Below, in pieces: positions 34,135 through 53,995 of a stretch of DNA of 64,000 bases. The stretch is taken from assembly GCA_934096805.1 (NCBI GenBank), contig CAKOMW010000001.1, positions 371,712-435,711 of the forward strand. Direction: 5' to 3'. The notes below the pieces were generated by a model. The model was not told the origin of the DNA and made no database searches. It saw only the letters and a list, made by a program, of their open reading frames with translations. How positions within the stretch are numbered: position 1 is the first letter of the stretch; every line of letters starts with the position of its first letter. Position numbers and translations under genes: made by a program. The DNA is from an uncultured Bacilli bacterium. Lineage in GTDB: Bacteria; Bacillota_I; Bacilli_A; RF39; UBA660.

Positions 34135-34221
34135 AATGATTAATTTCATTCTTTTTTTATGTTCTTCTTTATTCGACATTTATTTCATTTTTTATTTTGT
34201 AGAATAGATGTGGTGATAGTA

Positions 34222-34686
34222 ATGAGAGGAAAATTTTTAATACCAATTGTTTTTTCAATTGTAATAGGGTTCTTTTTTGGGAGGGTGTTTTTTAATTCAT
34301 ATGATGATTCTTTAGTTACGGCTTCTTCTTATGGGGAAAAGGTTTATTTTATACAAAAAGGTGTTTATTCTTCTTTGGATGATTTAAAGAAAAATAATTC
34401 TGATTATAAGAGTTTTCTGTATCTTAAAGAGTCTGATGGGTATCATTTGTATATTGGAATAACAAAAAATGAAAATATTGCTAAAAAAATTAAGGAATTT
34501 TATGAAAAATCTAATATTAATATATATGTAAGTGAAAAATATATTAATAATACGAGTTTTATATCAACTCTTTCAGAATATGATAAGTTGATTGATGTAG
34601 CTTCTCTTAATAGTTTTGTTGACTTACAAAAAATTGTTATATCAAATTATAAGGAGATGGTACTTAATGGGGAGGAATCTAATTAA
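34222..34686 (+). CDS. Hypothetical membrane-anchored protein
   Basis: Single N-terminal TM helix plus a ~130 aa domain. The ORF track starts at 34159; M at 34222 fits better. Confidence 0.3.
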   Translation: MRGKFLIPIVFSIVIGFFFGRVFFNSYDDSLVTASSYGEKVYFIQKGVYSSLDDLKKNNSDYKSFLYLKESDGYHLYIGITKNENIAKKIKEFYEKSNINIYVSEKYINNTSFISTLSEYDKLIDVASLNSFVDLQKIVISNYKEMVLNGEESN

Positions 34687-35368
34687 GGAGTTGCCTGTTA
34701 GTGAAAGGCCTAGAGAAAGGATGCTAAAGTGTGGTGCTAATTCTTTATCTAATTCGGAGTTACTTGCTATTATACTTAAGACAGGTGTTAGTGGTAGTAG
34801 TGTTTATGATTTAGCAAATGATGTTTTAAAAAAGGTTGGTGATATTTCTAATCTTAGTACTGTTAGCGTACAGGAGCTTATGTCTATTAATGGAATAGGT
34901 TGTGCTAAGGCACTTGAGGTTATGGCTTCAATTGAGCTTGGTAAGAGGGTGTTTTTTTCTAGTAGTAAGTTTTTAGAAAAGTTTAGTAATAGTAATGATG
35001 TTTATTCTAAGAATAAGTATTTGTTTTATGGAAAAAAGCAGGAGTATTTTTATTGCTTGTATTTGGATTCAAAAAAAGAGTTAATAGAAAGGAAGTTGTT
35101 ATTTATGGGAACAATTAATAAGAGTATAGTTCATCCAAGGGAAATATTTAAGGAAGCTTATCGTTTGTCTGCTTCATCTATTGTTTGTATGCATAATCAT
35201 CCTAGTGGAGATAAGATGCCTAGTATGGATGATATTATTTTGACTAATGCTTTAGTGGAGATAGGAAGGCTTCAACAAATACCAATTGTTGATCATATGA
35301 TATTTACGGATAATAGTTATTATAGTTTTTATGAGAATGGGGTTTTAGGAAATGAAAAGAGTCTATAA
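34667..35368 (+). CDS. radC: RadC-like JAB/MPN domain protein (UPF0758)
   Basis: HNHPSGD JAMM motif. Sits in the conserved position upstream of mreC. The start at 34667 has an AAGGAG RBS. Confidence 0.8.
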   Translation: MGRNLIKELPVSERPRERMLKCGANSLSNSELLAIILKTGVSGSSVYDLANDVLKKVGDISNLSTVSVQELMSINGIGCAKALEVMASIELGKRVFFSSSKFLEKFSNSNDVYSKNKYLFYGKKQEYFYCLYLDSKKELIERKLLFMGTINKSIVHPREIFKEAYRLSASSIVCMHNHPSGDKMPSMDDIILTNALVEIGRLQQIPIVDHMIFTDNSYYSFYENGVLGNEKSL

Positions 35369-36128
35369 AATTGTTTTGGTTATTATTCTTGTTTTAGGAT
35401 TGTTTTTCTTGTTTAGTGATAGGTTATTTCTTGGTAATAATCCTTTTAAGCAAGTTTATAAAGTGATGATTATTCCTGTTTCTAAGTTGTCTAATTCTTT
35501 TAATGATATTAGGAATTATAAGAGTATTAGTGCTCTTAATAAAAAGTTAGAAAAAGATAATATTTTACTTAATAGTACTTTGGATAAGAATAGTGCTTTG
35601 GAGGAAGAGAATAAAGAACTTAAATCTTTGATGGATCTTTCTTATGAGTCACAGAATAAGGTTTTTGCTAGGGTTATATCTAGGAATAGATTGTATTTTT
35701 TTGATACTTTTATTATATCTCGAGGAAGTGGTTCTGGTATTTCTTTATCTGATGCTGTTTTGTGTAGTGAGGGACTTGTTGGACGGGTTATTTCTATTAG
35801 TAAGAATTATGCTACGGTTAGAATGATTACTAGTAATTATGATGATAATAAATTGTCTGTTGTTATTAAGGGCAAAAAGAATGTTAATGGAGTTGTTAAA
35901 GAGTATAAGAATGGTTATTTACTTATTGATGGTGTTGATAATTATAATAAAGTTTTAGTAGGAGATAAGGTTTATACATCTGGTCTTGGTCTTATGTCTC
36001 GTGGTTTTTATGTGGGAGAAGTTTCTAAGGTTGTTTTAGATAGTTATGGAATAAGTAATTTGGTTTATGTGAAGCCTGTTTCTTCTCTTTCTAATATTAA
36101 TTATGTGATGGTGGTTTCTAATGATTAG
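35352..36128 (+). CDS. mreC: Rod shape-determining protein MreC
   Basis: N-terminal TM and coiled coil, then a beta-rich domain. Conserved radC-mreC-mreD order. Confidence 0.75.
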   Translation: MKRVYKIVLVIILVLGLFFLFSDRLFLGNNPFKQVYKVMIIPVSKLSNSFNDIRNYKSISALNKKLEKDNILLNSTLDKNSALEEENKELKSLMDLSYESQNKVFARVISRNRLYFFDTFIISRGSGSGISLSDAVLCSEGLVGRVISISKNYATVRMITSNYDDNKLSVVIKGKKNVNGVVKEYKNGYLLIDGVDNYNKVLVGDKVYTSGLGLMSRGFYVGEVSKVVLDSYGISNLVYVKPVSSLSNINYVMVVSND

Positions 36129-36573
36129 TGTTTTTATTCTTATAGTTGTTTCTTTTGTTCTTGATTTGTTTTTAGGAAATGTGTTTTATGGATTGGTTCC
36201 AATGTTTATTGTTTGTATTATTCCTTTTATGTCTTTTGTTTCATCTAAGTATAAGTTGTTTTTGTTTTTAATTGTTGGTTTTTTTATGGATATATTGTTT
36301 AGTGATGTTCTTTTTATAAATATTATTTTTTTCTTTATTATGTATTTTATAAAGTTTAAGAAAGGGTTGCTTTATATGATTTTTTCTTGTTTATTTGTTT
36401 ATGTTTTTTATATTTTGTATCTTTTTGGGGTTTTAAGTGTTTTAGGATATGGTTTTTATTTTTCTAAGTTGTTTTCTTTTACTTGGTATTCTTTTGTTAT
36501 TAATGTATTTTATATATTTTTTTCTTGTTTAGTATTTGGTCGTAATTTGGATGATAAAAAGAGTTTATATTAA
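36121..36573 (+). CDS. mreD: Rod shape-determining protein MreD
   Basis: Small polytopic membrane protein directly following mreC. Confidence 0.65.
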   Translation: MISVFILIVVSFVLDLFLGNVFYGLVPMFIVCIIPFMSFVSSKYKLFLFLIVGFFMDILFSDVLFINIIFFFIMYFIKFKKGLLYMIFSCLFVYVFYILYLFGVLSVLGYGFYFSKLFSFTWYSFVINVFYIFFSCLVFGRNLDDKKSLY

Positions 36574-36594
36574 TTCTTTTTTTCATATAATTTT

Positions 36595-37218
36595 ATGGGT
36601 GATATTATGTATGAGTATAAGAGTGTTAATAAGTATCTTCAAAAGAATGGGAAAAGGAAGAAGGAAAGAAGGGGTTTTAAGGGGTTTTTGTATAGTGTTT
36701 TTATTAAATTACTTATTTGTATTTTAATAGTTCTTGCGGTTTTAATTATTGTTAAGATTGATAAGAAGAGTAGTGGAAAGATTAATTCGTTTTTATATGA
36801 GAATAATATTAATTTTTCGAGGATAAATAAGTGGTATAATGAACATTTTGGTGATGTTTTGCCTAATTCTTCTAAGGCGATTAGTAATGCTACACCAGTT
36901 TTTAGTGAGAGTTTAGATTATAGTGGCGCAAATATATATAAAGATGGTGTTAGTTTGGCGGTTGCTAGTTCTTATTTGGTGCCTATATTAGGGGATGGAA
37001 TTGTTGTTTTTAGTGGAACTAAAGATGGTTATGGAAATACTGTTATTGTTCAACAAAGTGATGGGATTGATGTTTGGTATGGAAATATAGCTAATTGCAA
37101 TGTTAAGTTATATGATTATGTATCAAAGGGTGAGTTTTTGGGAGAAGTTAATAATAAGCTTTATTTAGTTTTTCAAAAGGATGGGAAGTATTTAGATTAT
37201 AAGAACTATATTTCGTAA
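36595..37218 (+). CDS. spoIVFA: Membrane-anchored degenerate M23/LytM-domain protein, SpoIVFA-like
   Basis: C-terminal LytM fold (GDGIVVFSGTKDGYGNTVIVQQSDGIDVWYGNI) lacking the catalytic His residues, as in SpoIVFA. It precedes an S2P protease gene. Confidence 0.5.
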   Translation: MGDIMYEYKSVNKYLQKNGKRKKERRGFKGFLYSVFIKLLICILIVLAVLIIVKIDKKSSGKINSFLYENNINFSRINKWYNEHFGDVLPNSSKAISNATPVFSESLDYSGANIYKDGVSLAVASSYLVPILGDGIVVFSGTKDGYGNTVIVQQSDGIDVWYGNIANCNVKLYDYVSKGEFLGEVNNKLYLVFQKDGKYLDYKNYIS

Positions 37219-37243
37219 GTTTTATATACATCCTCTTACGGTT

Positions 37244-37951
37244 TTGCTTTTGATACTTGTTATTTTTACAGGTCTTTTTAAGGAATTTTTGTTAGTTTTT
37301 TCAATTATTATTATTCATGAATTGGGGCATTTATTTAGTGCTGTTTATTATAAGTGGAATATTGATAAGATAAGTATATATCCTTATGGAGGGTGTGTTA
37401 GTTTTAATGAGAAGTTAAATAGACCTATTAGGGAAGAGTTTATTATTTTAATAATGGGTCCTTTGGTACAAGTGTTTTATTTATTGGTGTTTTATTTATT
37501 TTTTAGATTTGGTTTTGTTTCTTTTAAGACTTTTGTTTTGTTTAAGACTTATAATTTTACACTTCTTTGTTTTAATTTGTTACCTATTTATCCTCTTGAT
37601 GGAGGGAGGATTGTTAATTTGTTGTTTAACTTTTTTTTACCTTATAGGAAGTGTAATTTTTTAATAATAGTTATTTCTATTTTGTTTATATTTATTGTTA
37701 TTGTTAATTGTTCTAGTGTTAATTTGGTTATGATGATGGTATTTGTATTGTCTGAAGTTTTTGTTTTTATTAAACAACAAGATTATTTATATAATAAGTT
37801 TTTGCTTGAAAGGTTTCTTTTTAATTTTTCTTTTTATAGAGTTAGGGTTATAAAGAATAAGAATAATTTTTATAGGGGTAAGAGGCATGTGCTTTATAAT
37901 AATTTTAAATATGTTACGGAAAAGGAGTATTTAAAGGGGAGGTATAGATGA
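37244..37951 (+). CDS. spoIVFB: Site-2 protease, M50 family (SpoIVFB-like intramembrane metalloprotease)
   Basis: HELGH inside TM helix 1 and an LDGG motif (IYPLDGGRIV) in a later TM helix. Confidence 0.7.
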   Translation: MLLILVIFTGLFKEFLLVFSIIIIHELGHLFSAVYYKWNIDKISIYPYGGCVSFNEKLNRPIREEFIILIMGPLVQVFYLLVFYLFFRFGFVSFKTFVLFKTYNFTLLCFNLLPIYPLDGGRIVNLLFNFFLPYRKCNFLIIVISILFIFIVIVNCSSVNLVMMMVFVLSEVFVFIKQQDYLYNKFLLERFLFNFSFYRVRVIKNKNNFYRGKRHVLYNNFKYVTEKEYLKGRYR

Positions 37952-39117
37952 AAAGGGTTATATTTCTAATGATTGTTATACTTTTAGGTGCTTTGTATCT
38001 TAATTATGATGGGGATACTAAGAAGAGTGATAATGTGCCTACTTCGGATTCTTCGATGAAGGGGGTATTTGTTTCTTATATTGATTATGCAAGTTTGAAG
38101 GGGAAAGAGGTTAAGGAACAAAAGAATATTATTAATGAAATGGTTAATAATGTTTCATATTTTGGTTTTAATACAGTTATATTACAAGTTAGGGCTTTTT
38201 CTGATGCAATCTATGATTCTTCTTATTTTCCTTTGTCTAGTGTGATGGCTTATGATGAACAAGGGGTTTTGTTTGATGTTTTATCTTATTTTATTGAGAA
38301 ATGTAATAATAAGGATATTTTAGTTTATGCATGGATTAATCCTTATAGGATTTCTAATGATGGGGATAAGAGTAAAATTAGTAAAAATGCTAGTTATTAT
38401 AAGTGGCTTGATACAAATAAAATTGGAGTATATGATAATGGGATTTATTTTAATCCGGCGGATTCTGATGTTTTAGAGCTTATTTTGAATGGGGTTTCAG
38501 AGATAGTTAAGAATTATAAGGTTGCTGGTGTTTTATATGATGATTATTTTTATCCTAATGATGTAATAGATATGCAGAATTATGAGGATTATAAGGGTGA
38601 GCTTTCTTTGAATTCGTATAGGGTTAATAATATTAGTAATTTGCTTAAGGAGTCTTATCTTAGGGTAAAGAGTATTAATAAGGATGTTTTGTTTGGGATT
38701 AGTCCTTCTGGTAATGTGGAGAATAATCTTAATTATGAATATTTAGATATTAAGAATGTTTTAAAGGATAAGTATTTGGATTTTATAATGCCTCAGCTTT
38801 ATTATGGGTTTAATAATCAGAATAAACCTTATATGAAAGTGCTTAAGGAATGGAGTGGTCTTAATGTTAATAAGATAGATTTATATGTAGCTCTTTCTTT
38901 GTATAAGTCTGGTATGGTTGATACTTATGCTGGTAATGGTAAGGATGAGTGGGTTTCTAATAGTGATATTATTAAGAGACAGGTTCTTTCTTCTTCAGTT
39001 GTTAATGATTATAGTGGTTTTGTTATTTTTAGGTATGAATATTTGTTTGAGATTTTTGATAATGATAATTTAGTTTCTGAGGTTAATGGTTTACAGAAGA
39101 TAATGAATATTAAATAA
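37948..39117 (+). CDS. Glycoside hydrolase-like family 10 (GHL10, YngK-like) lipoprotein/secreted protein
   Basis: Signal peptide, then FGFNTVILQVRAFSDAIYDS... typical of GHL10 TIM-barrel proteins. Confidence 0.55.
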   Translation: MKRVIFLMIVILLGALYLNYDGDTKKSDNVPTSDSSMKGVFVSYIDYASLKGKEVKEQKNIINEMVNNVSYFGFNTVILQVRAFSDAIYDSSYFPLSSVMAYDEQGVLFDVLSYFIEKCNNKDILVYAWINPYRISNDGDKSKISKNASYYKWLDTNKIGVYDNGIYFNPADSDVLELILNGVSEIVKNYKVAGVLYDDYFYPNDVIDMQNYEDYKGELSLNSYRVNNISNLLKESYLRVKSINKDVLFGISPSGNVENNLNYEYLDIKNVLKDKYLDFIMPQLYYGFNNQNKPYMKVLKEWSGLNVNKIDLYVALSLYKSGMVDTYAGNGKDEWVSNSDIIKRQVLSSSVVNDYSGFVIFRYEYLFEIFDNDNLVSEVNGLQKIMNIK

Positions 39118-39191
39118 TTTTTTGGATATTTTATTTACACTTTTCATTAATTTTGATATAATTTGTGTTAGAATATGAGGAGTTGAATTTG

Positions 39192-41123
39192 ATGAAGAAA
39201 AGTATTTATTATTTATTTATATTTGGATTTTTATTTTTTGTATTTAGTTTTAGTGTTAATGCTTTAGAAGCTAGTATGAGTGTAAAATGTAATACTTTGA
39301 AGCTTAATGGTAGCTCTACTTGTAAAGTTTATGCAAATATAAGTGGAGGAGGTCTTGAAGGTGTTAGTGTTTCTTCGTTAGAGATTGTTTCTGGTGATGA
39401 TGTTGTTGCTATTGCGGAAACTTTTAAGGCTAATGATAATAGATTTTCTGCGGGAAAGAATGTGTATTTAGGTACTTTTAAGATAAAGTCTTTGGGAAAG
39501 AATGGTACAGGTAAAGTTAATTTAAAGCTTGTTGCTAGGAGTGATCCAGGGCAAGCTACTGTTACTCTTAGTCCTAAGACGGGAGTTGTGGCAACGTTTA
39601 ATGTTTTGTCTTCGGTTGCAACACTTTCTAGTATAAGTGTTAATGATGCTCCGATTAATGGTTTTGATAGCAATGTTTATTCTTATAAACTTAGTGGAAT
39701 TACTACTAGTAGTGTAAAGGTGTCTGCGCTTGGTAGTCTTTCTAGTGTAAAGGTAAGTGGTGCTGGTACTCATAAGTTGAAATGTGGTAATAATACTGTT
39801 GTTTTAAATACTGTTTCACAGGATAAGAGTAAAAAGTTAAAATATACACTTACTATTAATAGAACTTGTGATGATAATACAACTTTAAAGAATATAGTTT
39901 TATCTAGTGGTACTTTGGCTCCTGCTTTTAGTGCTAGTACAACTGATTATAAAGTTAATGTTGATTCTAAGACTGAAAATATTACAATTAATGTTGATAA
40001 AGGTAGTGAAGGGCAAAAAATAAGTGGTCTTGTTAATAATAAAAAGCTTGCTTTTGGTGATAATACTTTTAAGATAAAGGTTACTAGTGAAAAGGGTTCT
40101 AGTAGGACTTATAAGATTATAGTTAATCGTGCTGATGATAGGTCTAATAATGCGCTTTTGTCCACTCTTACTTTAGATAGTGGTAAGCTTAATTTTGATA
40201 AGAATGTATTTAATTATGAAGTTAAGGTTTTAAATACTGTAGAAAAAATTAATGTTGTTGCTAATGCAGAGGATGCAAAGGCTAAGGTTGATGTTACTAA
40301 TCCTGATACTTTGAAAGAGGGAGAAAATAACATAGTAGTTAAGGTAACTGCTGAGAATGGTTCAACACAAGAGTATACGATAAAGGTTAATAGACTTAAA
40401 GCTGGAGAAGTTATGGGGGATAATCCTAATATAAAGTTACTTACTATTACAGGTTATACTATTAATTTTAATCCTCTTACGACTAGTTATAATTTAAAGA
40501 TTGATAATAAGACTGATAGTTTAGGAATTAATGTTATAATGGAAGAAGATGGTGCAACTTATTTAATTAGTGGAAATGAAAACTTAAAAGATGGTTCGGT
40601 TATTGTTATTGATACTACTTCTTTAGATGGAACTAAGAATACTTATAAGATTATTATTGAAAAGAGTAATACTGATTTTTATATTCTTATTGGGGCTGGA
40701 GTGCTTCTTGTTGGAAGTCTTAGTGCTATTATAGCGATAATGGTTAAAAAGAGAAAAGGTAAGAATAATGGTATTATGGATTCTATAGGTAGTAGTGCTG
40801 GTAGTGTGGATGCATCAAAGAGTGATGTTGTGGAAGAGGTTAATCCAATTCAAGAAGAACCTGTAGAAGGTGGTGACTTTGGTAAGAGTAAGGGTTGGTT
40901 TAGAAAGCATAAGAGTGTACCTAAGAATGAAGTCATGTCTTTTGAAGAATTAAAGAAATATGATCCTACTAATAAAGGGAATGGTATTGTAGGTAGATCT
41001 GCTCCATCAGAAGAGTATGAAAGGGTAGAAATTACTGAGGATCAAACTAAACAATGTCCTAAGTGTGGACATAGAATTAATTTTTCTGCTAAAGTGTGTC
41101 CTTATTGTGATAAAGAGTTTTAA
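39192..41123 (+). CDS. Surface protein with multiple cadherin-like beta-sandwich repeats, a TM anchor and a C-terminal zinc-ribbon tail
   Basis: Signal peptide, then repeats of L(S/T)L..G.L.P.F.....Y.V (Cadherin-like pfam12733 pattern). TM helix YILIGAGVLLVGSLSAIIAIMV, then a C-terminal CPKCGH...CPYCDKEF. Confidence 0.6.
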   Translation: MKKSIYYLFIFGFLFFVFSFSVNALEASMSVKCNTLKLNGSSTCKVYANISGGGLEGVSVSSLEIVSGDDVVAIAETFKANDNRFSAGKNVYLGTFKIKSLGKNGTGKVNLKLVARSDPGQATVTLSPKTGVVATFNVLSSVATLSSISVNDAPINGFDSNVYSYKLSGITTSSVKVSALGSLSSVKVSGAGTHKLKCGNNTVVLNTVSQDKSKKLKYTLTINRTCDDNTTLKNIVLSSGTLAPAFSASTTDYKVNVDSKTENITINVDKGSEGQKISGLVNNKKLAFGDNTFKIKVTSEKGSSRTYKIIVNRADDRSNNALLSTLTLDSGKLNFDKNVFNYEVKVLNTVEKINVVANAEDAKAKVDVTNPDTLKEGENNIVVKVTAENGSTQEYTIKVNRLKAGEVMGDNPNIKLLTITGYTINFNPLTTSYNLKIDNKTDSLGINVIMEEDGATYLISGNENLKDGSVIVIDTTSLDGTKNTYKIIIEKSNTDFYILIGAGVLLVGSLSAIIAIMVKKRKGKNNGIMDSIGSSAGSVDASKSDVVEEVNPIQEEPVEGGDFGKSKGWFRKHKSVPKNEVMSFEELKKYDPTNKGNGIVGRSAPSEEYERVEITEDQTKQCPKCGHRINFSAKVCPYCDKEF

Positions 41124-41188
41124 AAGTACTTGAAAAAGTGCTTTTTTTTTATTATAATTATTTTAGAATAGACTATGGAGGTTAGATT

Positions 41189-42748
41189 ATGCCAGTTAGA
41201 GAAAAGTTTGATAGTTTTAAAAAGGATAATCCTTTGTTTAGAGATGTAAAAGAGTATAATAAGTATTTATTAATGTTGATTAGTGTTTCTATATTAGTAC
41301 TTACTGGGGTTATTTCTTATTTTGTAAGTGGTTCTTATGCTAGATGGAATATGGTTGTGGAGTCTAGTAACATATTGAAGTTAGGGGTTAAAAGTCTTAA
41401 TTTGGATGAAAGTGGTGCTAACAAGCCTGAACTTACAAGTAATATGATACCGGTTTATTATGATAATACAAGTAGTAGTTGGAAGAAAGCTGATGAAAAT
41501 AATAGGGATGAAGCTTATAAGTGGTATGATTATGATAGTAAAATGTGGGCAAATGCTGTAACTGTTACAGAAGCTAATAGAGATACTTATTTGAAAGCAA
41601 GCGCAGGTACAGAAATACCAATGGATGATATAAATACAATGTGGGTATGGATACCAAGATATACATATACATATCTGAAAACTAATACACCAGAAGAAAT
41701 AAAGATAAAGTTTGAGAAGGGAATAGAAAGCACAGGTACAATAAAGTGTACTGATAATGTATCAGGAAGTGGAACAACATCACAAACATGTACAGATACA
41801 ACAAATGGAGGTTTAAAAGCAGGAACAAGTACATATACCCATCCAGCTTTCACATTTGGAGATACAGAACTAACAGGATTATGGGTAGGTAAGTTTGAGA
41901 GTAGTGCAACAACAATACCAACAAGTGCTTCAACAACAGAATCTACAGTAATAATAAAACCAAATGTCCAATCATTAAGATATAAAACAGTATCATATCA
42001 ATTTAGAGATGCAAGACAAATGGAGAAAGCAAATAATGTATATGGCTTTTCACAAAGTAATAACACAACATTTAATTGGAATGGTAATTTAACTGGAGAT
42101 ATCAATAATATAGATATACATATGATGAAGAATACAGAATGGGGAGCAGTAACATATTTATATCATTCAAAATATGGAAGATGTACTTCTGGTACTTGTG
42201 TAGAATTAACAATAAATAACTGTAGTACATATACAACAGGAATAGGAGCAGATACAGTAAGTGCTAATGAGTCTTCGATAACATGTACGACAAATAAGAA
42301 TAAATATAATGGAGAAAGCGGAGTAAAAGCAAGTACAACAGGAAATGTATATGGTGTGTATGACATGTCTGGAGGCACATGGGAATATACAATGGGCAAT
42401 ATGGTAAATTCATCTAATCAATTTTATACATCAAGTGCAAGTAATTGGAGTACAACAACATATCCATTATCAAAGTACTATGATAGTTATACATATAATA
42501 CTGATGAAGCAACATATTCAAAAGGAAGGTTAGGAGATGCAACAATAGAAATGAGTCCTTCATCTAGTTCTACTACTTCATGGTATTCAGATTATGCCTT
42601 CTTCCCATACTCGAACATGACTTGGTTCCTACGTGGGGGTGGCTACAGTAATGGTACGGGTGTGGGTGCTTTCTCCTTTGGATTTGGCAATGGTTCTGCG
42701 CTCAACTTCCGCTCGTTTCGGGTTTCTCTTGGCGTTCAGGCCTCTTAA
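41189..42748 (+). CDS. Secreted protein, paralog B: SipW/TasA-type signal-anchor plus C-terminal FGE-sulfatase-like C-type-lectin-fold domain (candidate DGR variable protein)
   Basis: N-terminal ...GSYARWNMVVESSNILKLG after a hydrophobic anchor. The C-terminal GNVYGVYDMSGGTWEYT ... RGGGYSNG ... NFRSFRVS matches the FGE-sulfatase signature motifs (G.YDM.GN.WEW, RGGS., GFR). The last ~45 codons are GC-rich NNC/NNT. A GGAGGT RBS precedes the start. Confidence 0.65.
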   Translation: MPVREKFDSFKKDNPLFRDVKEYNKYLLMLISVSILVLTGVISYFVSGSYARWNMVVESSNILKLGVKSLNLDESGANKPELTSNMIPVYYDNTSSSWKKADENNRDEAYKWYDYDSKMWANAVTVTEANRDTYLKASAGTEIPMDDINTMWVWIPRYTYTYLKTNTPEEIKIKFEKGIESTGTIKCTDNVSGSGTTSQTCTDTTNGGLKAGTSTYTHPAFTFGDTELTGLWVGKFESSATTIPTSASTTESTVIIKPNVQSLRYKTVSYQFRDARQMEKANNVYGFSQSNNTTFNWNGNLTGDINNIDIHMMKNTEWGAVTYLYHSKYGRCTSGTCVELTINNCSTYTTGIGADTVSANESSITCTTNKNKYNGESGVKASTTGNVYGVYDMSGGTWEYTMGNMVNSSNQFYTSSASNWSTTTYPLSKYYDSYTYNTDEATYSKGRLGDATIEMSPSSSSTTSWYSDYAFFPYSNMTWFLRGGGYSNGTGVGAFSFGFGNGSALNFRSFRVSLGVQAS

Positions 42749-42844
42749 GCCTATTTAATATAAAGTTTAATATAATAAGATATAATATTTAAAAAGGGTT
42801 CTAATGACTCTTTTTTTTCATATAATTTTTTAGGAGGAATAGTT

Positions 42845-43342
42845 ATGATTAATAAGCAGGGTTTATGGTTTTTAACTTTATTTAGTTTAGTATTGGTGCT
42901 TAGTGTTTATTATATTACAATGCCTAATGAGGTGTTTACTAATAGTGGTACTTTGTCTAATACTAAGAAGACTACTGAGGTTAATAAGGAAGTAAAGGAA
43001 TCTAATTATATTGCTACTTTGAAGATTGAGCTTGATGATAAGAGGAATGAATCTTTGAAGGAGTATGAGTCTATTTTGTCTAATAGTTCTTCTAGTACTG
43101 ATGATAAGAATAAGGCTTATGAGGGAATTAAGGATATTAATTCTACTAAGGCTCTTGAGGAGGGGATTGTTTCTCTTATTAAGAGTGAATTAGGACTTAA
43201 TAGTTTTGTAGAGGTTAAGTCTACTTCGGTATCGGTTGTTGTTGATAAGAAGGATCATGATGTTAAACTTGCTAATAAGATTATGAATTTGGTTCAGGGG
43301 GAGTTTAATGATTATGTAAGTGTTTCTGTTAAATTTTCTTGA
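42845..43342 (+). CDS. Membrane-anchored sporulation-associated protein (SpoIIIAH/YhcN-like fold candidate)
   Basis: N-terminal TM, acidic linker, and a C-terminal domain (...VEVKSTSVSVVVDKKDHDVKLANKIMNLVQGEF...) that resembles YscJ/SpoIIIAH-type domains. Confidence 0.3.
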   Translation: MINKQGLWFLTLFSLVLVLSVYYITMPNEVFTNSGTLSNTKKTTEVNKEVKESNYIATLKIELDDKRNESLKEYESILSNSSSSTDDKNKAYEGIKDINSTKALEEGIVSLIKSELGLNSFVEVKSTSVSVVVDKKDHDVKLANKIMNLVQGEFNDYVSVSVKFS

Positions 43343-43379
43343 TTTTTTCACGTTTTCTTTGTTTGTATCATAAAATATT

Positions 43380-43631
43380 ATGGATAATATAAAACCACCC
43401 AATCTGAAAGTGAGGGAATGCTTTTTGAAAAAATCTATACTTACAAAGAGAGAAAAAGAAGTGTTTGAGTTATTGATTTTGAATAAGACTACTAAGGAAA
43501 TTGCTAGTAAGCTTAATATTAGTGAAAAGACTGTAAGAAATCATATTTCCAATGCTATGCAGAAACTTGGGGTTAAAGGACGAGCTGCTGCAGTTGTAGA
43601 ACTTTTGAAATTAAAGGAATTATCACTATAA
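43380..43631 (+). CDS. gerE: GerE-like LuxR-family HTH transcription regulator
   Basis: LTKREKEVFELLILNKTTKEIASKLNISEKTVRNHISNAMQKLGVKGRAAAVVELLKLKEL is nearly co-linear with Bacillus GerE. The true start may be an internal GTG/TTG near 43410-43425. Confidence 0.75.
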   Translation: MDNIKPPNLKVRECFLKKSILTKREKEVFELLILNKTTKEIASKLNISEKTVRNHISNAMQKLGVKGRAAAVVELLKLKELSL

Positions 43632-43667
43632 CATGTGCTAAAGGCACATGTTTTTTCATATTATTAA

Positions 43668-44603
43668 TTGGTGAAGTTTATGTTTTGGAAGAAGTCTATT
43701 AATAAGATATTTTTTACTACTTTGATTGTTTTTATTTGTTTTATTATGTATAGTTTTAATTTGACTGATTATGATAGTTCTAGTAGTGGTGGGATTTCTT
43801 CTAATGTTAATTTGTATACTGTTAATAATGATTCTTATGTTTCTATGACTAGTGTTTTTCTTGATAGTGATAGTTTGGAGGATAAGGTTCGTGATGTTCT
43901 TGATATAATGGTTGTTGATAGTAATAAGAGTGCACTTTTACCTAGTTATTTTAATCCTATTCTTCCTAAGAATACTAAGGTTTTGGATGTTGTTTTTGAT
44001 GGAGATGTTTTGAAGATTTATTTTTCTTCAGAGCTTATGGATATAACTAGTGAACAGTCGGAGAAAATGATTGAGTCTATTACTTATACTTTGCTTGGTT
44101 TTGATGAGGTTGTTGGGGTAGAGATTTATGTTTCTGGTTCTTTGCTTAAGTATGTTCCTAATACTAATAAAAAGTTGCCAGCGGTTCTTACTTCTTCTTA
44201 TGGGGTTAATAAAAGTTATGATCTTAGTAGTAATATGGATATTAAAAGGATTTTGCTTTATTATTATACGATGAATAATGATTCTTATTATTTGATTCCT
44301 GTTACTAAGTATGTTAATGATAAGAGGGAGAAGGTTGAGATTATTATTGAGGAGTTGTCTGGTTTTATTTATCATGATAATTTGGTTTCGATGCTTAGTA
44401 ATAATATTAGGCTTGTTGATTATAAGGTTTCTTCGGATAGGATTTCTTTGGTTTTTGATGAGGGATTTACTTCTTTTTCTGATATAATGGTTAAGCCTTT
44501 GTTTTGTTCAATTTTTGCTAATTATGATGTTGATTTTGTTGATATTAGTGTTAATGAGGATAAAATTTTAGAAAAAAGTAAAAAAGATATTGAAAATTAT
44601 TAA
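43668..44603 (+). CDS. gerM: GerMN-domain germination/sporulation protein GerM-like
   Basis: Signal anchor plus two GerMN-like repeats. Adjacent to gerE. Confidence 0.55.
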   Translation: MVKFMFWKKSINKIFFTTLIVFICFIMYSFNLTDYDSSSSGGISSNVNLYTVNNDSYVSMTSVFLDSDSLEDKVRDVLDIMVVDSNKSALLPSYFNPILPKNTKVLDVVFDGDVLKIYFSSELMDITSEQSEKMIESITYTLLGFDEVVGVEIYVSGSLLKYVPNTNKKLPAVLTSSYGVNKSYDLSSNMDIKRILLYYYTMNNDSYYLIPVTKYVNDKREKVEIIIEELSGFIYHDNLVSMLSNNIRLVDYKVSSDRISLVFDEGFTSFSDIMVKPLFCSIFANYDVDFVDISVNEDKILEKSKKDIENY

Positions 44604-44635
44604 ATTTTGTTGTATAATTAAATGGCATTTGAGGA

Positions 44636-44712
44636 TGTCCTGGTAGCTCAGCTGGATAGAGCATCGGCCTTCTAAGCCGGCGGTCAGGGGTTCGAATCCC
44701 TTCCAGGACGCC
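44636..44712 (+). tRNA. tRNA-Arg (anticodon TCT)
   Basis: Manually folded cloverleaf. Acceptor gtcctgg/ccaggac, D-arm gctc...gagc, anticodon loop cttCTaa, T-arm agggg-ttcgaat-ccctt, encoded CCA. Confidence 0.85.
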
Positions 44713-44716
44713 ATTT

Positions 44717-44793
44717 CCGGAGAGTGGCTCAACTTGGTAGAGCACTTGGTTTGGGACCAAGGGGTTGCAGGTTCAAATCCTGTCTCTCCGACC
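44717..44793 (+). tRNA. tRNA-Pro (anticodon TGG)
   Basis: Acceptor cggagag/ctctccg, anticodon stem cttgg/ccaag with loop ttTGGga, T-loop ttcaaat, encoded CCA. Confidence 0.85.
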
Positions 44794-44862
44794 ATTTTTG
44801 TTTATTAACCCGTTTGGGTTTTTTTCTTTGGTTGCAAATGTTTTTGTTTTGTGTTATAATTT

Positions 44863-45363
44863 TTGAGGTGGTTATGTGTGAAAAGTGAGTATTATAATAT
44901 AGTTAATGATATTATTAATAATAAAGATTATATGAGACTTAAGTCTGAGGTTCATCATTATAGTTATGAGAGATATTCTCATTGTATTGATGTTTCTTAT
45001 AAAGTTTATAGGGTTTGTAAAAGGCTTCATTTAGATTATGTTAGTGCGACTCGTGCTGCGGTTGTTCATGATTATTTTTTTAATGAAGAGTTTTCTGATA
45101 AGAGTAAGTTTTATAGAATAACTCATCATTATGAAAAGGCTCTTGCCAATGCTTGTGAAATTACTTCTTTATCTTCGAAGGAAAAAAATATTATTAGTTC
45201 TCATATGTTTCCTATCGGTGGTGTTCTTCCTAGATGCTTAGAGAGTGTTATTGTTGATTTGATTGATGATGTTGTGGCGCTTAAAGAGGTTGTTTCTTGT
45301 AGATATCATTTAATTAAGAATGTTGCTTATTGTTTAGTTGTTTGTGTTCTTTTTTGGAAATAG
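44863..45363 (+). CDS. HD-domain phosphohydrolase family protein
   Basis: H...HD pattern (HCIDVSYK ... VVHDYFF). The probable start is GTG 44878 behind a GAGGTGG RBS. Confidence 0.5.
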   Translation: MRWLCVKSEYYNIVNDIINNKDYMRLKSEVHHYSYERYSHCIDVSYKVYRVCKRLHLDYVSATRAAVVHDYFFNEEFSDKSKFYRITHHYEKALANACEITSLSSKEKNIISSHMFPIGGVLPRCLESVIVDLIDDVVALKEVVSCRYHLIKNVAYCLVVCVLFWK

Positions 45364-45372
45364 TTTCTTTTT

Positions 45373-45449
45373 GTCCTCGTAGCTCAGCAGGATAGAGCAA
45401 TTGCCTCCTAAGCAATAGGTCGGAAGTTCGAATCTTCTCGAGGACGCCA
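45373..45449 (+). tRNA. tRNA-Arg (anticodon CCT)
   Basis: Acceptor gtcctcg/cgaggac, anticodon stem attgc/gcaat with loop ctCCTaa, T-loop ttcgaat, encoded CCA. Confidence 0.85.
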
Positions 45450-45490
45450 TATAAAAAAATAAGAGAAAAGCATTTATTTGTTTTTCTCTT

Positions 45491-46189
45491 TTAATTTTTT
45501 CTTCCTAGATATTCTATTGATATTGTTACTAAAGGATTTGTAAAGTATGAAGAGGATGCTATATTATTTAAATCTGGTGTATTTAAATATATTGATTTTT
45601 TACCTAGGTTTTCGAAATAATATGTATTTTGTGTATTTTCTACTGATAATATTCCTTGTGCTATTGTTTGATGGGATATGTTATCTTTTGACCAAGTGCT
45701 TGCACCAATATAAATATTGTCAGTGTTGGCTAATTTTAGTCCTATTGATATGATATCTTCGTCTTTGTTGAAATTTTGTTCTTTTTTAGTGTAGGCTTGA
45801 ATGATGAATGTTATTTTGTAGTATCCTATTTTGTTAAAATTTATGGTTTGCTTATTGTTTAAGGTTATTATGTTTTGATAGTTTATTTCTTCTCTGTCGA
45901 TAGGGATTTTTTCGTTTGGTTTTATTTCTATTTCTTGTCCAGAGTTGAATTTTACGAGGTTAGCTGATTTTATTGTTTCTTGTCCTCCTTTTGGGATTAT
46001 AAAGTCTAGAATGTGATTGTTTCCTTGTGGTGTATCGATTACTTTTGCATCTTCGTATGGGTCGGCGGTTATGGTGTTTCTAATTGTTATTTTATCGGCG
46101 TCTCCTTTAGGACCTTTTGGTCCTTGAGGACCTAGAATGCCAATGTAGGCTGGTAAGTTTTTCTTTTTGGTTGGATTACATTTTTTCAT
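45491..46189 (-). CDS. Short collagen-like repeat protein with a BclA/C1q-like C-terminal domain
   Basis: GILGPQGPKGPKGD GXY run after a basic N-terminus, then a ~190 aa beta-rich domain. Confidence 0.45.
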   Translation of the reverse strand: MKKCNPTKKKNLPAYIGILGPQGPKGPKGDADKITIRNTITADPYEDAKVIDTPQGNNHILDFIIPKGGQETIKSANLVKFNSGQEIEIKPNEKIPIDREEINYQNIITLNNKQTINFNKIGYYKITFIIQAYTKKEQNFNKDEDIISIGLKLANTDNIYIGASTWSKDNISHQTIAQGILSVENTQNTYYFENLGKKSIYLNTPDLNNIASSSYFTNPLVTISIEYLGRKN

Positions 46190-46430
46190 ATTTTTCTCCT
46201 TTCATTATATTTTATTTTAATTTTTTTTATTTGTGGCAACGAATATCTTATTAATGGTTGATTTTTTAATAAAGAGTCTTGTTTTTTAGGGAAATGTTTG
46301 GTTGTAATGGTGTTTTTTGATGAAATGTTTTTGTTTAGAGGTCTTACTTTTTTTGAAAAAATTTTTATTTTTTTAGAAAAATATTTCTTTTTTTTATTTA
46401 ATGTTATATAATGTACTTAGAGGTGATAGT

Positions 46431-47108
46431 ATGAAAAGTTTTTCAAATATTTTATGGGGTATAGTGTTGGTATTGCTTGGTCTTGTTTTTGGACTTAATG
46501 CGATTGGAGTTACTGATATTAATTTGTTTTTTGATGGTTGGTGGACTCTTATTATAATTATTCCTTGTTTTATTAATTTGTTTCATGATGATGAAAAGAT
46601 TGGTAGTTTAATTGGGGTGTGTATTGGTGTTTTCTTGCTTTTGGGGTGTCAAGGGATTATTGATTTTTCTTTGATATGGAAACTTATTGTACCTATTGTT
46701 CTTGTTGTTATAGGGCTTTCTATGTTGTTTAAAAATAGTGTTAAGGATAAGATTAAGAAAGAGATTGGTTCAATTAATAAGAAGAGTAATAATAAAGAAT
46801 ATAGTGCTTGTTTTTCTGGTACTGATTTAGATTTTTCTAATGAGGAGTTTCGTGGATGTGATTTGAATGCTTCTTTTGGTGGTATTAAGTGTGATTTAAG
46901 GAAGAGTAAGATTAAAAAAGATGCTGTTATTAATGCATTTAGTGTTTTTGGTGGTATTACTATTTTTGTTCCTGATGATGTTAATGTAAAGATTGTTTCT
47001 AGTTCAATATTTGGTGGAGTTTCTGGCAAAGGTAGGGATGTTTCTTCTGATGCCAAGACTGTTTATATTAATGCTAGTTGTTTGTTTGGGGGTGTTGAGA
47101 TTAAATGA
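46431..47108 (+). CDS. LiaF-like (DUF2154) membrane protein, cell-envelope stress module
   Basis: N-terminal multi-TM region and a C-terminal toastrack-like domain with repeated FGG..I motifs (FGGIKCDL, FGGITIFV, FGGVSGKG, FGGVEI). Confidence 0.55.
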   Translation: MKSFSNILWGIVLVLLGLVFGLNAIGVTDINLFFDGWWTLIIIIPCFINLFHDDEKIGSLIGVCIGVFLLLGCQGIIDFSLIWKLIVPIVLVVIGLSMLFKNSVKDKIKKEIGSINKKSNNKEYSACFSGTDLDFSNEEFRGCDLNASFGGIKCDLRKSKIKKDAVINAFSVFGGITIFVPDDVNVKIVSSSIFGGVSGKGRDVSSDAKTVYINASCLFGGVEIK

Positions 47109-47899
47109 ATGGTTTGCAAAAGTTAGTTAAGTATTTTGCTGTTGCTCTTGCTTGTTTTTTAATTGTTAGTATTATTTCTATTGCTGTTTCTTTTATGGCT
47201 TCTTTGGGAGATGTTTTTAGTAATAAGATTGAGCCTAGGACTAGTGTTAATCTTGATAATTATTCAAGTTATCTAGATGTTGATGTTTCTTCTAGTTCTT
47301 TAGAGATAAGAAGTGGGGATAGTTTTTTAGTTAGTTCCACTTCTGATGATGTTTCAGTTGTTTCTGATGATGAAAAGATTGTTATAAAGGAAAAGAAGGG
47401 GTTTAATTTTAATAAGGATAATTTGGTGATTGTTACTGTTCCTTATGATTATTCTTTTGATTTTGTTTCTATTTCTGTTGGGGTAGGTAAGGTCAAGATT
47501 GCTGAGCTTGTTACTGATAAGTTTTATTGTGATATGGGTATTGGTAGTGCTGTTATAGAGAGGTTAAACGTTAAAGATGAGGCTGTTATTGATGGAGGAA
47601 TTGGCAAGATTAGAATTAATGATGGTGTTTTGAATAATTTTAATTATGATATGGGTATTGGTGCTGTTATTATTAATTCTAAAGTGACTGGTAAGAGTGA
47701 GATTGATGGAGGAATTGGAGATATTTCTCTTAAGTTACTTGATAGTGCTTCTTCTTATACTTTTGATGTTTCTAGTGGTATTGGTTCTGTTTATCTTAAT
47801 GGTTCCGTTATAAAGGGGGATACTGTTTCTGGTAACGGAGTTAATGATATTTCGGTTTCTAGTGGTATCGGTTCGATTAAGATTGATACTTTAGAGTAA
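47105..47899 (+). CDS. DUF4097 / putative adhesin beta-helix (toastrack) protein
   Basis: Signal anchor, then repeated G(I/V)G...(I/V) beta-strand motifs (MGIGSAVI, GGIGKIRI, MGIGAVII, GGIGDISL, SGIGSVYL, SGIGSIKI). Confidence 0.55.
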   Translation: MNGLQKLVKYFAVALACFLIVSIISIAVSFMASLGDVFSNKIEPRTSVNLDNYSSYLDVDVSSSSLEIRSGDSFLVSSTSDDVSVVSDDEKIVIKEKKGFNFNKDNLVIVTVPYDYSFDFVSISVGVGKVKIAELVTDKFYCDMGIGSAVIERLNVKDEAVIDGGIGKIRINDGVLNNFNYDMGIGAVIINSKVTGKSEIDGGIGDISLKLLDSASSYTFDVSSGIGSVYLNGSVIKGDTVSGNGVNDISVSSGIGSIKIDTLE

Positions 47900-47936
47900 T
47901 AAAAAAAAGAGATTTTTCTTTGAGAAATTTTCTCTT

Positions 47937-48677
47937 TTATTTTTGTCTTTTTTTTGCTTCTTGTACGAGAGTTTTGAATATTTCGTTGTCTTTCATTAGT
48001 TCTGGGTGGAAATGGAGTCCAATGATGAAGTGGCTTTTCTTTTTGTATTCAATTATTTCCTTAACGTTATCGTTTGCAATAGCGGTTATTTTAAAATCGC
48101 TTCCGGTGTGTTTAAAGTCAAAGTTATGCATGCTTGGAACAGATAGTTTTTCTTTTTTGTATATTTGATATGCTAATGACTGTTTGTCGATGATGGTTAT
48201 TTCGTGGGTTAGGTCATCATAGTTTGTTTTTAGTTTAGTGTCGTTGTTGTGAATGTTGTTTGGTTCTAGTTCTTGGAGTAGTGTGTTATTGTATTTCTTT
48301 TTAAGGTTTATGTATATTTCTTCGTATGTTTTGGTTTTGTTTTCTTCTTTTGTTGCTTCTTCTTTAATACAACTGTAGATGTTTATTGCTTCGGCACCTA
48401 GACATATTCCTAGAAGGGGTTTATTGTTTCTTATAGCATAGTCGATTATTTTGTAGACGTATTTTTGAACTTTGTTGCCTCCTTGAATTATGAAGGCGTC
48501 GTATATTTCAAGGTTTTTATCGTTTATAGTGTTGTCGTTTAGTAAGATTCCAGTTGGTATTGCGTTTTCTTCTAGTATTTTTTCAGCGTAGATTGATGTG
48601 TATTTGAAGTATTTATCGTATGGGTCTTTTGATTCTTCGATGTAGTTTGGTACGATTCCAATAATAGTTTTTTTCAT
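47937..48677 (-). CDS. Class I glutamine amidotransferase-like / peptidase C26 (gamma-glutamyl hydrolase family)
   Basis: GICLGAEAINIY nucleophile elbow, with HFHPE toward the C-terminus. Confidence 0.65.
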   Translation of the reverse strand: MKKTIIGIVPNYIEESKDPYDKYFKYTSIYAEKILEENAIPTGILLNDNTINDKNLEIYDAFIIQGGNKVQKYVYKIIDYAIRNNKPLLGICLGAEAINIYSCIKEEATKEENKTKTYEEIYINLKKKYNNTLLQELEPNNIHNNDTKLKTNYDDLTHEITIIDKQSLAYQIYKKEKLSVPSMHNFDFKHTGSDFKITAIANDNVKEIIEYKKKSHFIIGLHFHPELMKDNEIFKTLVQEAKKRQK

Positions 48678-48910
48678 ATGTTTCTCCTTTTGTTTTTCAT
48701 TTATTATATATTTTTTTGATGTTTTTGAAATGGAGTTTATATCTATTTTGTCCTTTTTTGTATTATGTTTTGTCTTTTTTCATTTTTCATCTTATCATAG
48801 ATGTTTTTTGTTTGCAATTGTTTTATATTTTTTTTAATTTTTGCTTTTGTTTTTTCATATATTTTGTTAGAATTAAGATAGAATATATAAGATAAGAGGA
48901 GGCGTATATT

Positions 48911-53232: not shown

Positions 53233-53320
53233 TTTTTTACATATTTTTTTCTTTGGTTTTCTATTTTTGAAACTTATATGTGTGTTGGTGTTTCTTTTAG
53301 TTTATGGTTTTTATGTAAAA

Positions 53321-53348
53321 AAAAGTACGAGTTGTTTTTCGTACTTTT
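53321..53348. terminator. Hairpin AAAAGTACG-N10-CGTACTTTT (bidirectional terminator; copy A of a repeated hairpin flanking fic)
   Basis: Perfect 9-bp inverted repeat overlapping the fic stop codon. Confidence 0.6.
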
Positions 53349-53883
53349 ATTCATTTGTTTCATAATAATATGATGTTTCGATACCTTTGAATATGGTTTC
53401 TAGAGAAGTATCTTCGGTTAAGTTATTTTTAATTAAAGTTTTTATTTCTAAAGTGTTAATTGGGCTTCTTTCCATTGCCTGTAAGTATAGTTTTTTGTCT
53501 ATGTTTTCCCAGTTTACTATTTTGTTTTGTCTTTTTTTAAGAATTAAATCTAACCATATTCTTGTGCTTCTTCCGTTTCCTTCTAGAAAAGGATGGGCAA
53601 TGTTCATTTCTACGTATTTATCTATGATTTCATCTATGGTTGTTTCGCTCATTGTTTCAATTTTTTTTAGTATTTCTTTCAGGTATAGAGTGTTTGCGAA
53701 TCTGAAGCTTCCTTTTGAAATATTTTCTTTTCTGATTTCTCCAGCAAAGTCGTATATGTTGTTGAAGATGTATTTGTGTATTTGTTGTAATCCTCTTGTT
53801 GTTCCAATTTCTATATTGCTAATGTCGTTACTTTTGAATAGTTTTTTGGCATTTTCTAGACTTTGTCTATCAGTTTCATTCAT
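53347..53883 (-). CDS. fic: Fic/Doc family protein (AMPylating toxin-like)
   Basis: Canonical Fic motif [12 protein letters not shown]. 178 aa, A-rich island composition, flanked by tRNA genes. Confidence 0.8.
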
Positions 53884-53954: not shown

Positions 53955-53995
53955 TATTTATATTCTCTATTTTATTAGAGTTTGTTTCTAATTAA

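Follow-up and report, generated by a model that had tools for sequence, protein, structure and literature searches.

Diversity-generating retroelements (DGRs) act through an AAC-rich template repeat, which is reverse-transcribed with errors at adenines and whose cDNA replaces a variable region (VR). Mismatches that fall specifically at template adenines are the hallmark of this mutagenic homing, and the VRs lie at the C-terminal end of a lectin domain. Most known lectins diversified by DGRs belong to phage tails, and a few are bacterial lipoproteins. The 64,000-nt stretch of DNA analysed here (the window) contains ORF B (41189-42748, plus strand), which encodes a protein of 519 aa, and two genes, A and C, which the initial annotation had grouped with it under these letters. 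The DGR variable protein is the already known kind to which the lectin cores of B and C belong: the predicted fold and the position of the VR in the last ~50 residues are those of Bordetella phage Mtd, Treponema denticola TvpA, Thermus aquaticus TaqVP and Legionella LdtA, and a GC-rich VR, an AAC-rich template with mismatches at adenines, a nearby avd gene and the service of several targets by one template are common to both. Where these proteins use a lipoprotein signal or a phage tail, B and C are apparently displayed by means of a transmembrane (TM) segment that carries a TasA/SipW-class motif, joined in C by a TasA-like β-sandwich. The domain, ~440 aa, is also larger than in the solved examples and reaches the threshold of no Pfam model, no reverse transcriptase (RT) was found, avd is truncated, the template is shortened, and some members of the family appear to be switched by poly-G tracts.

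We consider it likely that B belongs to a family of surface lectins which were diversified by a DGR, have modular N-termini and are partly switched by poly-G tracts. B is, we infer, a ligand-binding protein exposed at the cell surface. A short cytoplasmic tail and one TM/signal segment would export it, followed by the C-type-lectin domain, whose C-terminal ~50 residues would form the binding surface; the codons for these residues (the VR of Table 1) would have been overwritten from an AAC-rich template with adenine errors. The same lectin core is joined to varied display modules, namely a short anchor in B, a TasA-like β-sandwich in C, and DUF6273, Big or pilin-like parts in relatives. A second layer of variation would come from poly-G tracts, some within the 5' coding part and others within the promoter spacer, whose slipped-strand changes would switch many members, including A. 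The initial annotation had described the lectin-like C-termini and the repeat that B and C share; it overlooked the main point, that the lectin cores are DGR targets, as well as the GC-rich 3' VR of B and the tract of 11 G just upstream of A.

The core shared by B and C is a ~440-aa domain predicted to have a C-type-lectin fold, similar to that of the formylglycine-generating enzyme (FGE). The AlphaFold model of B, based on 62 homologues, has a pLDDT of 77 and a pTM of 0.80. A Foldseek search of the PDB with this model gives TaqVP, the DGR variable protein of T. aquaticus, as the best match (5vf4, E 7.7e-5, probability 1.0), followed by Bordetella phage Mtd, PvdO, PorK, ToxD and OvoA, all of which share the fold. 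Among predicted viral structures, the best match (E 4.7e-7) is to a "sulfatase-modifying factor-like" protein of a phage, and tail-collar fibre proteins of gut phages are numerous among the other matches. The lectin fold proposed in the initial annotation is therefore borne out by modelling for B and C, while for A there is only a weak match to DUF6273.

The presence of FGE-fold proteins among the structural matches, together with a weak match of B to PF03781 (FGE-sulfatase, E 0.0075), might suggest that the core is a formylglycine-generating (sulfatase-modifying) enzyme and not a binding domain. This is hardly credible: the match scores 16.4 bits against a cut-off of 23.3 bits and covers only 37 residues; the similarity is at the level of the fold only, and the proteins closest in structure are DGR variable proteins, which are not enzymes. 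PF03781 does not match C, and a scan of full-length A, B and C against NCBIfam returned nothing. The region that would have to be functional in an enzyme is moreover hypervariable; in the alignment of homologues, the highest column entropy of the B-type domain (~2 bits) is reached in the last ~50 residues.

Relatives of B are numerous, with at least 8000 matches in a clustered protein database, all of them unnamed, and 1121 clusters (50% identity, E <= 1e-30). Reference genomes yielded 569 confirmed loci, in metagenome-assembled genomes (MAGs) of uncultured gut Bacilli, each MAG having several copies of the core family, scattered among housekeeping genes. Three of the homologous proteins (designated P#### below), P0215, P0216 and P0240, are 3700-4500 aa long and contain five or six copies of the core each. 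The comparisons described hereafter were made with 80 related genomic loci (designated L###, as are a few further loci).

The template repeat lies outside the window, and no template repeat for B or for A was found inside it. Locus L084 was found via P0024, the full-length form of C (655 aa, 98.5% identical); its first 11,596 bases are colinear with, and 99.79% identical to, window positions 52405-64000. Past the window end, L084 carries the rest of C. Its segment 11817-16348, which would correspond to window positions ~64,220-68,750, contains the VR of C, then a fourth paralogue of 895 aa with a VR of its own; a GC-rich hairpin-like stretch follows the stop codon of the latter. At L084 15341-15469 (about window position 67,745, ~3.7 kb past the end) is the template repeat, a non-coding, AAC-rich copy of the 3' ends of the genes. 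Near it are an 85-aa ORF, a MuF_C gene and a truncated bAvd gene (PF22296, L084 15993-16223, 42.3 bits against a 40-bit cut-off, 69 of the 107 profile positions). This assemblage looks like a decayed DGR cassette.

In all three VRs, mismatches to the template are over-represented where it has an adenine. For the fourth paralogue, mismatches occur at 17 of 29 template adenines and at 6 of 97 other positions (p 6e-9), and for C at 17/29 and 9/97, respectively (p 1e-7). The VR of B shows the same bias (18/29 and 18/97, p 1.6e-5), and is noisier than the other two. A conserved element, CTCGTTTCGGG..TC.CTTGG, a candidate for the GC-rich 3' initiation of mutagenic homing (IMH) sequence, is common to the template repeat and to all three VRs. 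The GC content of the VRs is 54-63% (54% in B), compared to 50% for the template, 32% for the core and 29.8% for the window as a whole, in which only four regions contain 120-nt stretches with at least 47% GC. The orthologues P0002 and P0003 of B are 93-96% identical to it in the N-terminus and 84-85% in the core, and only 50-55% in the VR; in P0001, which comes from a near-identical strain, the VR is the same as that of B. B and C are read as targets of a DGR which has probably decayed, and the duplicated core of 950 bp is the conserved scaffold common to the paralogous targets B, C and the fourth, 895-aa paralogue.

The domain classes, the C-terminal VR and the gut habitat are shared with phage DGR targets of the DUF6273 and FGE-like types ("tentaclins", the targets in Faecalibacterium prophages and the tail fibres of crAss-like phages). 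Such lectins are typical phage DGR targets, the fold of the core matches tail-collar, tail-fibre and FGE-like phage proteins, its composition is not that of the host, and MuF_C and avd adjoin the template repeat. That B and C are leftover tail-fibre genes of prophage remnants is nevertheless very improbable. In contrast to the phage targets, they are chromosomal, are carried on bacterial export or anchor modules and sit among housekeeping genes: their N-terminal TM/signal segments have a host-like composition, no phage structural genes flank either of them, several copies occur per genome, and the neighbourhood of B (genes for a GHL10 protein and a cadherin-like protein, spoIIIAH and gerM) is conserved and syntenic with locus L007.

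Table 1. Positions of the features of genes A, B and C, and of G tracts in related loci (coordinates refer to the window unless a locus is named; a slash in a motif marks the predicted cleavage position).
Feature	Position	Strand	Description
A 5' control region	11609-11757	+	promoter-like TTGAAA...TAGAAT, short upstream ORFs, ATG 11716 opening a 14-codon frame (MINKYSSGGGGQYY, then stop)
G11 homopolymer	11737-11747	+	no other G or C run in the window reaches 7; between ATG 11716 and the ORF of A
A N-terminal part	11792-12445	+	hydrophobic segment ending STYA/LYNSELVTGENTIKSGQVKMSY, then N-module of the class of C
A C-terminal DUF6273-like domain	12545-13315	+	PF19789, E 4.8e-4, 20.5 bits against a 23.5-bit cut-off
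B promoter, sigma-70-type, predicted	41130-41158	+	TTGAAA 41130-41135, 17-nt spacer with T9, TATAAT 41153-41158; read from sequence
B residues 1-47	41189-41329	+	cytoplasmic tail, NPLF(R/K)DVKEYNKY motif, then single TM/signal segment
B residues 48-69	41330-41395	+	TasA/SipW-class motif GSYA/RWNMVVESSNILKLGVKS; predicted cleavage site and N-terminal strand
B residues 70-467	41396-42589	+	predicted C-type-lectin/FGE-like scaffold; includes repeat 41418-42367; A-rich 4-fold sites
B variable region (VR), DGR-type	42590-42745	+	~155 bp, GC-rich island, most variable part of the family
C residues 1-30	62405-62494	+	signal/TM segment ending GTYA/F; from sequence
C N-module	62495-63050	+	β-sandwich; host-like, T-rich 4-fold sites
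C lectin core	63051-64000	+	cut by the window end; second repeat copy
Four GC-rich stretches	42561-42760; 13121-13240; 44601-44820; 50881-51000		the first is the B VR, the second the A 3' end
Promoter-spacer G8-G10 tracts	L022 1002; L025 9305, 16229; L026 2548; L033 9416; L041 146; L073 9479
Similar spacer tracts	L034 96; L078 17387		unconfirmed by automated check

The repeat that B and C share is real and is the sole long repeat in the window: the two direct copies (41418-42367 and 63051-64000) are separated by 21,633 bp, in agreement with the ~950 bp and ~21.6 kb given in the initial annotation. They are not near-identical as had been stated, since the identity is 86% for the DNA (818 matches, 130 mismatches and 4 gap nt in a gapped alignment) and 83% for the protein. 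The N-terminal modules do differ, the part ahead of the shared core being ~70 aa long in B and ~215 aa in C, in which it includes the β-sandwich module. Of the three proposed paralogues, B and C stand; A is not a paralogue of B, shares with C only the class of its N-module (23% identity in an alignment) and has a different C-terminal half. Gene C starts with a GTG at 62405, preceded by AAGGAG, and leaves the window end after 532 codons; the ATG of B has a GGAGG ribosome-binding site 7 nt upstream. In the AlphaFold model of B, the TM helix spans residues 20-47 and the confidence is low (pLDDT <50) in residues 47-68; the NPLF(R/K)DVKEYNKY motif of the tail is kept across homologues.

Among homologues, the same core stands behind at least five kinds of N-terminal part. 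The first is a tail of ~85 aa with a TM segment, as in B, and the second is the β-sandwich module of ~210-230 aa, as in C, of which there are several subtypes. The third adds a Big_3 domain to the β-sandwich module, the fourth is an extra insertion or extension of ~230 aa inside the core region, and the fifth, in P0089, is an N-terminus resembling that of type IV pilins (KGFALAEILAV), placed ahead of the lectin core. A search for homologues of the N-module of C added three fragments only, which reveal nothing on further fusions. Locus L007, which is syntenic with window positions 34000-49600, has an orthologue of B which keeps the N-terminus of B and has an extra DUF6273-like module of 860 nt exactly at the core junction.

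The module junction also coincides with a break in composition, visible within single genes at 4-fold degenerate sites (fractions of T and A at these sites are written T4 and A4). The window has an extreme strand bias: T4 is 0.6-0.86 and A4 0.06-0.25 in plus-strand genes, and minus-strand genes, taken on their own coding strand, have an A4 of 0.57-0.67. In their 5' parts, B and C conform to what plus-strand genes show (T4 of 0.70 and 0.67, respectively), and the lectin cores break it (A4 of 0.61 for B core 41419-42589, with up to 0.82 in 300-nt windows, and of 0.75 for C core 63053-64000). Gene A is A-rich at these sites throughout its length, even though it is on the plus strand. In the L007 orthologue of B, the DUF6273-like insert is host-like and the core A-rich, and the core is A-rich in almost all of the 80 related loci, regardless of the pattern of the neighbouring genes. 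The A-rich core and host-like 5' part noted in the initial annotation are thus correct, and the cassette-like mosaic assembly that it proposed is supported by the switch of composition at the module junction, by the variety of N-terminal parts and by the L007 insert.

Two causes of the switch were considered and ruled out. A single recent inversion, or a shufflon, is incompatible with a window that contains no inverted repeats of 60 nt or more, and with cores that, irrespective of the strand bias around them, are A-rich in nearly all of the related loci as well as in the syntenic orthologue. Selection at translation in favour of A-ending codons is contradicted by the ribosomal-protein genes beside the family gene of L081, which are T-rich. 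It is possible that the A-rich core results from repeated exchange with an A-rich pool, for example that of phage receptor-binding proteins.

The N-terminal ends of A, B and C resemble those of TasA, BsaA and camelysin (CalY; TIGR04088, TIGR04090, PF12389), which have in common a signal ending in small-aromatic-Ala, an aromatic residue and an N.i..G.l.l strand; the TasA fibre is the best fold match of the β-sandwich N-module of C and A, and genes of the sipW type neighbour family genes in some relatives. In all three proteins the hydrophobic segment ends with (S/T)YA; the residue after it is aromatic or aliphatic in A (STYA/LYN) and C (GTYA/FDK), and B has GSYA/RWN. All full-length members of the family have a hydrophobic segment ending (G/S)(S/T)(Y/F)A, then an aromatic or aliphatic residue, and ~10 residues past the cleavage motif an x-I-x-x-G-x-hydrophobic-x-hydrophobic strand; the TM segment followed by an (S/T)(Y/F)A motif is present in at least 24 family ORFs. 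The TasA sequence was checked against 8aur and 5of1, in which the mature chain starts at A28, after GTWA. When the N-module profile is aligned to TasA with hhalign (E 5e-4, probability 31%, 72 columns), the aligned part takes in the signal with its cleavage region, the first strands and also the "F.F.N.GS" strand, and the family motif is in register with TasA GTWA/AFND. PF12389 is weakly matched by 2 of 16 N-modules (best E 9.4e-4). The N-terminus of P0020, which combines the module type of A with the core of B, passes TIGR04088 (27.9 bits against a 19-bit cut-off).

These observations could mean that the signal is of the SipW class and is cleaved after ...YA by a signal peptidase of the archaeal/ER type, the new N-terminal strand then joining a TasA-like sandwich by donor-strand exchange. 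Proteins of the A and C types would polymerise or enter TasA-like fibres, and those of the B type, with a strand and no sandwich, would cap or decorate the fibres with a lectin head. Besides the collinearity of the family motif with the cleavage site and first strands of TasA, and the score of P0020, the neighbourhood of family genes in relatives is consistent with such a role. In L075, the gene after the family gene is of the BsaA family (TIGR04090 123.9 bits; PF12389 26.5 bits), and a sipW-type gene (TIGR02228 90.9 bits) comes next. In L007, a cluster located 3-8 kb downstream of the B orthologue contains a pair of sipW-type genes together with small TasA-like ones and an A-like DUF6273 gene of 429 aa; A matches the protein encoded in this cluster by BLASTP (E 2e-14). 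The sipW-type genes of both loci are above the TIGR02228 cut-off.

Several results make these fibres rather unlikely. TIGR04088 does not match B, C or six other N-termini, and A scores 13.3-14.1 bits, below the cut-off; B has no sandwich domain. The N-module profile finds no match among PDB sequences even at E 10, and its hhalign alignment to the BsaA-like protein of L075 is limited to the signal peptide. No SipW-type peptidase was found in the window, either by motif scan or by tblastn with 94 SipW-type queries, which confirms what the initial annotation had stated, or in L084. At the position of the 5-kb cluster of L007 (14372-19053), the window has a tRNA and a minus-strand BclA-like gene (45373-46189). 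None of 91 SipW homologues is on the long contigs that carry the closest relatives of B, in a search which depends on shared exact words, and sipW is within 10 kb of only 2-3 of the 80 loci, which is about what chance would give for one copy per 1.3-Mb genome. Finally, the conserved cytoplasmic motif NPLFKDVKEYNKY would be unusual in a signal peptide that is discarded.

The other explanation of these N-termini, to which we give slightly less than an even chance, is that the signal anchor is not cleaved and that A, B and C are type II membrane proteins that present a lectin domain on the cell surface, their TasA-like features being vestigial or convergent. The single TM helix and the positively charged N-terminal tail of conserved sequence agree with it, as do the lack of a SipW in the window and on the related long contigs, the lack of a β-sandwich in B and the sub-threshold scores against the SipW-class models. 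On the other hand, the YA-aromatic motif and the strand are kept across very different N-terminal modules, which argues for a function beyond anchoring, and relatives have retained sipW/tasA clusters beside family genes.

The TasA/SipW-type N-terminus proposed in the initial annotation is therefore upheld in part: the motif is present in all three proteins, the N-module profile aligns to TasA at low probability and P0020 passes the model, but B and C do not match it and A remains below its cut-off. Homologues of sipW, which it proposed to locate elsewhere in the genome, are present in the relatives L007 and L075; none was found in the window, in L084 or, by the word-based search, on the long contigs that carry the closest relatives. 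We find it plausible that the N-terminus is, by descent, one of the TasA/SipW class, with a putative cleavage in this organism. Compared to known members of this class, most of the proteins described here do not pass the models, a large lectin is fused at the C-terminus, B has no sandwich, the window has neither sipW nor tapA, and cleavage and polymerisation are both putative. No papers were found that deal with TasA or SipW together with a C-type lectin or with a DGR.

The second layer of variation that we propose is best seen in gene A (ORF 11792-13318, plus strand). Upstream of it, a GGAGG precedes a TTG-TAA frame (11660-11678), and a uORF of 9 codons (11690-11719) has a stop overlapping ATG 11716. 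The G11 tract puts this ATG out of frame with A, whereas G10 or G13 would give a protein of 533 aa. The number of runs of this type expected in the window from composition alone is ~0.002. The same promoter and the same layout of ATG and poly-G are present in L082 and L083, and homologues begin with "M.NKYS.GGGQNT.KINPLFKD", which indicates that the poly-G tract is conserved. From its position and length, the G11 tract is a predicted translational phase-variation switch, currently OFF.

In 1.13 Mb, the related loci contain 16 G runs of 8 or more, all of them on the strand of the family gene, none occurring as a C run. Seven are just after a start codon, and the other nine occupy, or seem to occupy, the spacers of TTGACA-N16/17-TATAAT promoters; an automated pattern confirmed seven of the nine and left those of L034 and L078 unclassified. 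Since a change of one G in a spacer tract converts a 16-nt spacer into one of 17 nt or the reverse, these tracts would be transcriptional phase switches. Of the coding-type tracts, including those of L081-L083, 10/11 are one base out of frame, and for each of them exactly one class of G numbers restores an ORF of 350-650 aa. Homologues include both ON forms (G9, for example in P0004 and L055) and OFF forms (G10, G11), and many "short" database proteins starting with "MLKLSV" or "MESKNV" are gene calls of the OFF phase. B and C have no G tract.

Both layers meet in L055, a distant member of the family, in which a single gene, in the segment 30-1999, has an in-frame G9 tract (ON) in its 5' coding part and a downstream repeat resembling a template; this copy (1863-1999) lies 190 nt downstream of the gene, and 20 of the 36 mismatches are at template adenines. 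The downstream copy of L044 shows no such bias.

The tracts resemble those of known contingency loci (opa, opc and pgtA of Neisseria, those of Haemophilus, the poly-A of vlp promoters in Mycoplasma, the poly-G of Campylobacter) in their location, which is either close behind the start codon or between the -35 and -10 boxes of surface-protein genes, in the effect that gain or loss of one base has on the frame or the spacer length, and in their association with a multigene family of which most copies are OFF. They differ from them in belonging to DGR-type lectins of uncultured gut Bacilli with a small genome of 30% GC, and in that the switching is read from the sequence alone.

The C-terminal part of A contains one of the four GC-rich stretches of the window (13121-13240, 48% GC), at the 3' end of the DUF6273-like domain and ending with ...YTVRPVLYL. 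DUF6273, to which this part is weakly similar, has been described as C-lectin-like (PMC10743442) and as a C-lectin-like DGR target domain in gut phages (PMC10743442, PMC11792537). The GC-rich stretch of A resembles a DGR variable region, which would be of a second type. A relationship between the C-terminal domain of A and the core of B could not be demonstrated (tblastn E 0.56, hhalign E 0.14).

A number of points weigh against a DGR-diversified, phase-variable family as we describe it. No RT (motif GN..SQ ... YxDD) was detected in the window, L084 or the 80 related loci by a motif scan, which was the only method used for this search; the called genes of L084 include none with an RVT domain, and a 42-aa ORF of L084 which contains FYDDF, and may be an RT remnant, is unconfirmed and has no meaningful PDB match. 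Compared with the VRs, the template repeat is 21 nt too short, and avd is truncated; both are outside the window, their presence being deduced from the near-identical contig L084. The VR of B also departs from the template at 19% of the positions without an adenine, and its diversification may therefore be old or have used a different template. This reading does not account for the A-rich synonymous sites of the core. No difference in tract length was seen at the same locus between samples, L082 and L083 both having G10, and homopolymer lengths taken from assemblies are uncertain. The lack of an RT, the truncated avd and the short template suggest that the DGR has probably decayed and that the tips of the lectins are now frozen.

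The organism is a spore-former-like bacterium with a small genome. The window contains spoIIIAH, gerM, ftsA, ftsZ and the gene of a LysM amidase, and the nearest public genomes are MAGs of uncultured gut "Bacilli" or "Tenericutes", one of which is a closed chromosome of 1.31 Mb. Two collagen-like proteins with G-x-y repeats (10462-11151, plus strand, and 45491-46189, minus strand) weakly resemble the C-terminal domain of BclA; they are of the exosporium type, which agrees with a spore-forming lifestyle despite the small genome. The GC-rich stretch 44601-44820 holds two adjacent tRNA genes (44637-44791).

The gene immediately upstream of B (39165-41123) encodes a signal, four cadherin-like β-sandwich domains, a TM segment and a cytoplasmic zinc ribbon; its product is another large surface protein, and its synteny with L007 is conserved. 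Directly downstream of ftsZ, an Abi_2 (abortive-infection-like) gene (59478-60569) has an intermediate composition at 4-fold sites, which suggests that it was recently acquired. Between this gene and ORF 61076 are three tandem units of ~160-190 nt each (60558-61061), each with a promoter-like TTGACT-N17-TATATT site, a short hairpin and a terminator-like end with a T-run. They have no match in Rfam at the gathering threshold and may be three small RNA genes.

A more elaborate arrangement would be a combinatorial, variable adhesive-fibre system of a Gram-positive-type gut commensal, in which SipW-type cleavage frees a donor strand, TasA-like N-modules polymerise by strand exchange, every subunit or every B-type cap bears a lectin head written by the DGR, and poly-G tracts choose which of the heads is on display. 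We regard it as quite unlikely. If it were true, a donor-strand fibre, hypermutation by a retroelement and slipped-strand phase variation would be united in one organelle, and the non-host composition of the heads would reflect a continual exchange of cassettes with phage receptor-binding proteins.

In the literature that was searched, we found no description of the mounting of such lectins on TasA/SipW-class parts, of the added phase variation by simple sequences or of a family of this size in uncultured gut Bacilli. The presence of lectin heads on TasA/SipW-class parts hints that biofilm-fibre machinery has been reused for the display of hypervariable binders. Hypervariation and ON/OFF gating would affect one and the same family, and L055 would have both in a single gene. 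The sharp break at synonymous sites inside single genes is a clean marker of cassette exchange and is worth explaining. The family is very large and unannotated, with at least 1100 clusters at 50% identity and several copies per genome of ~1.3 Mb. That uncultured gut Bacilli with such small genomes keep so many copies suggests that through these proteins, probably a main interface, they deal with the host, phages or neighbouring cells.

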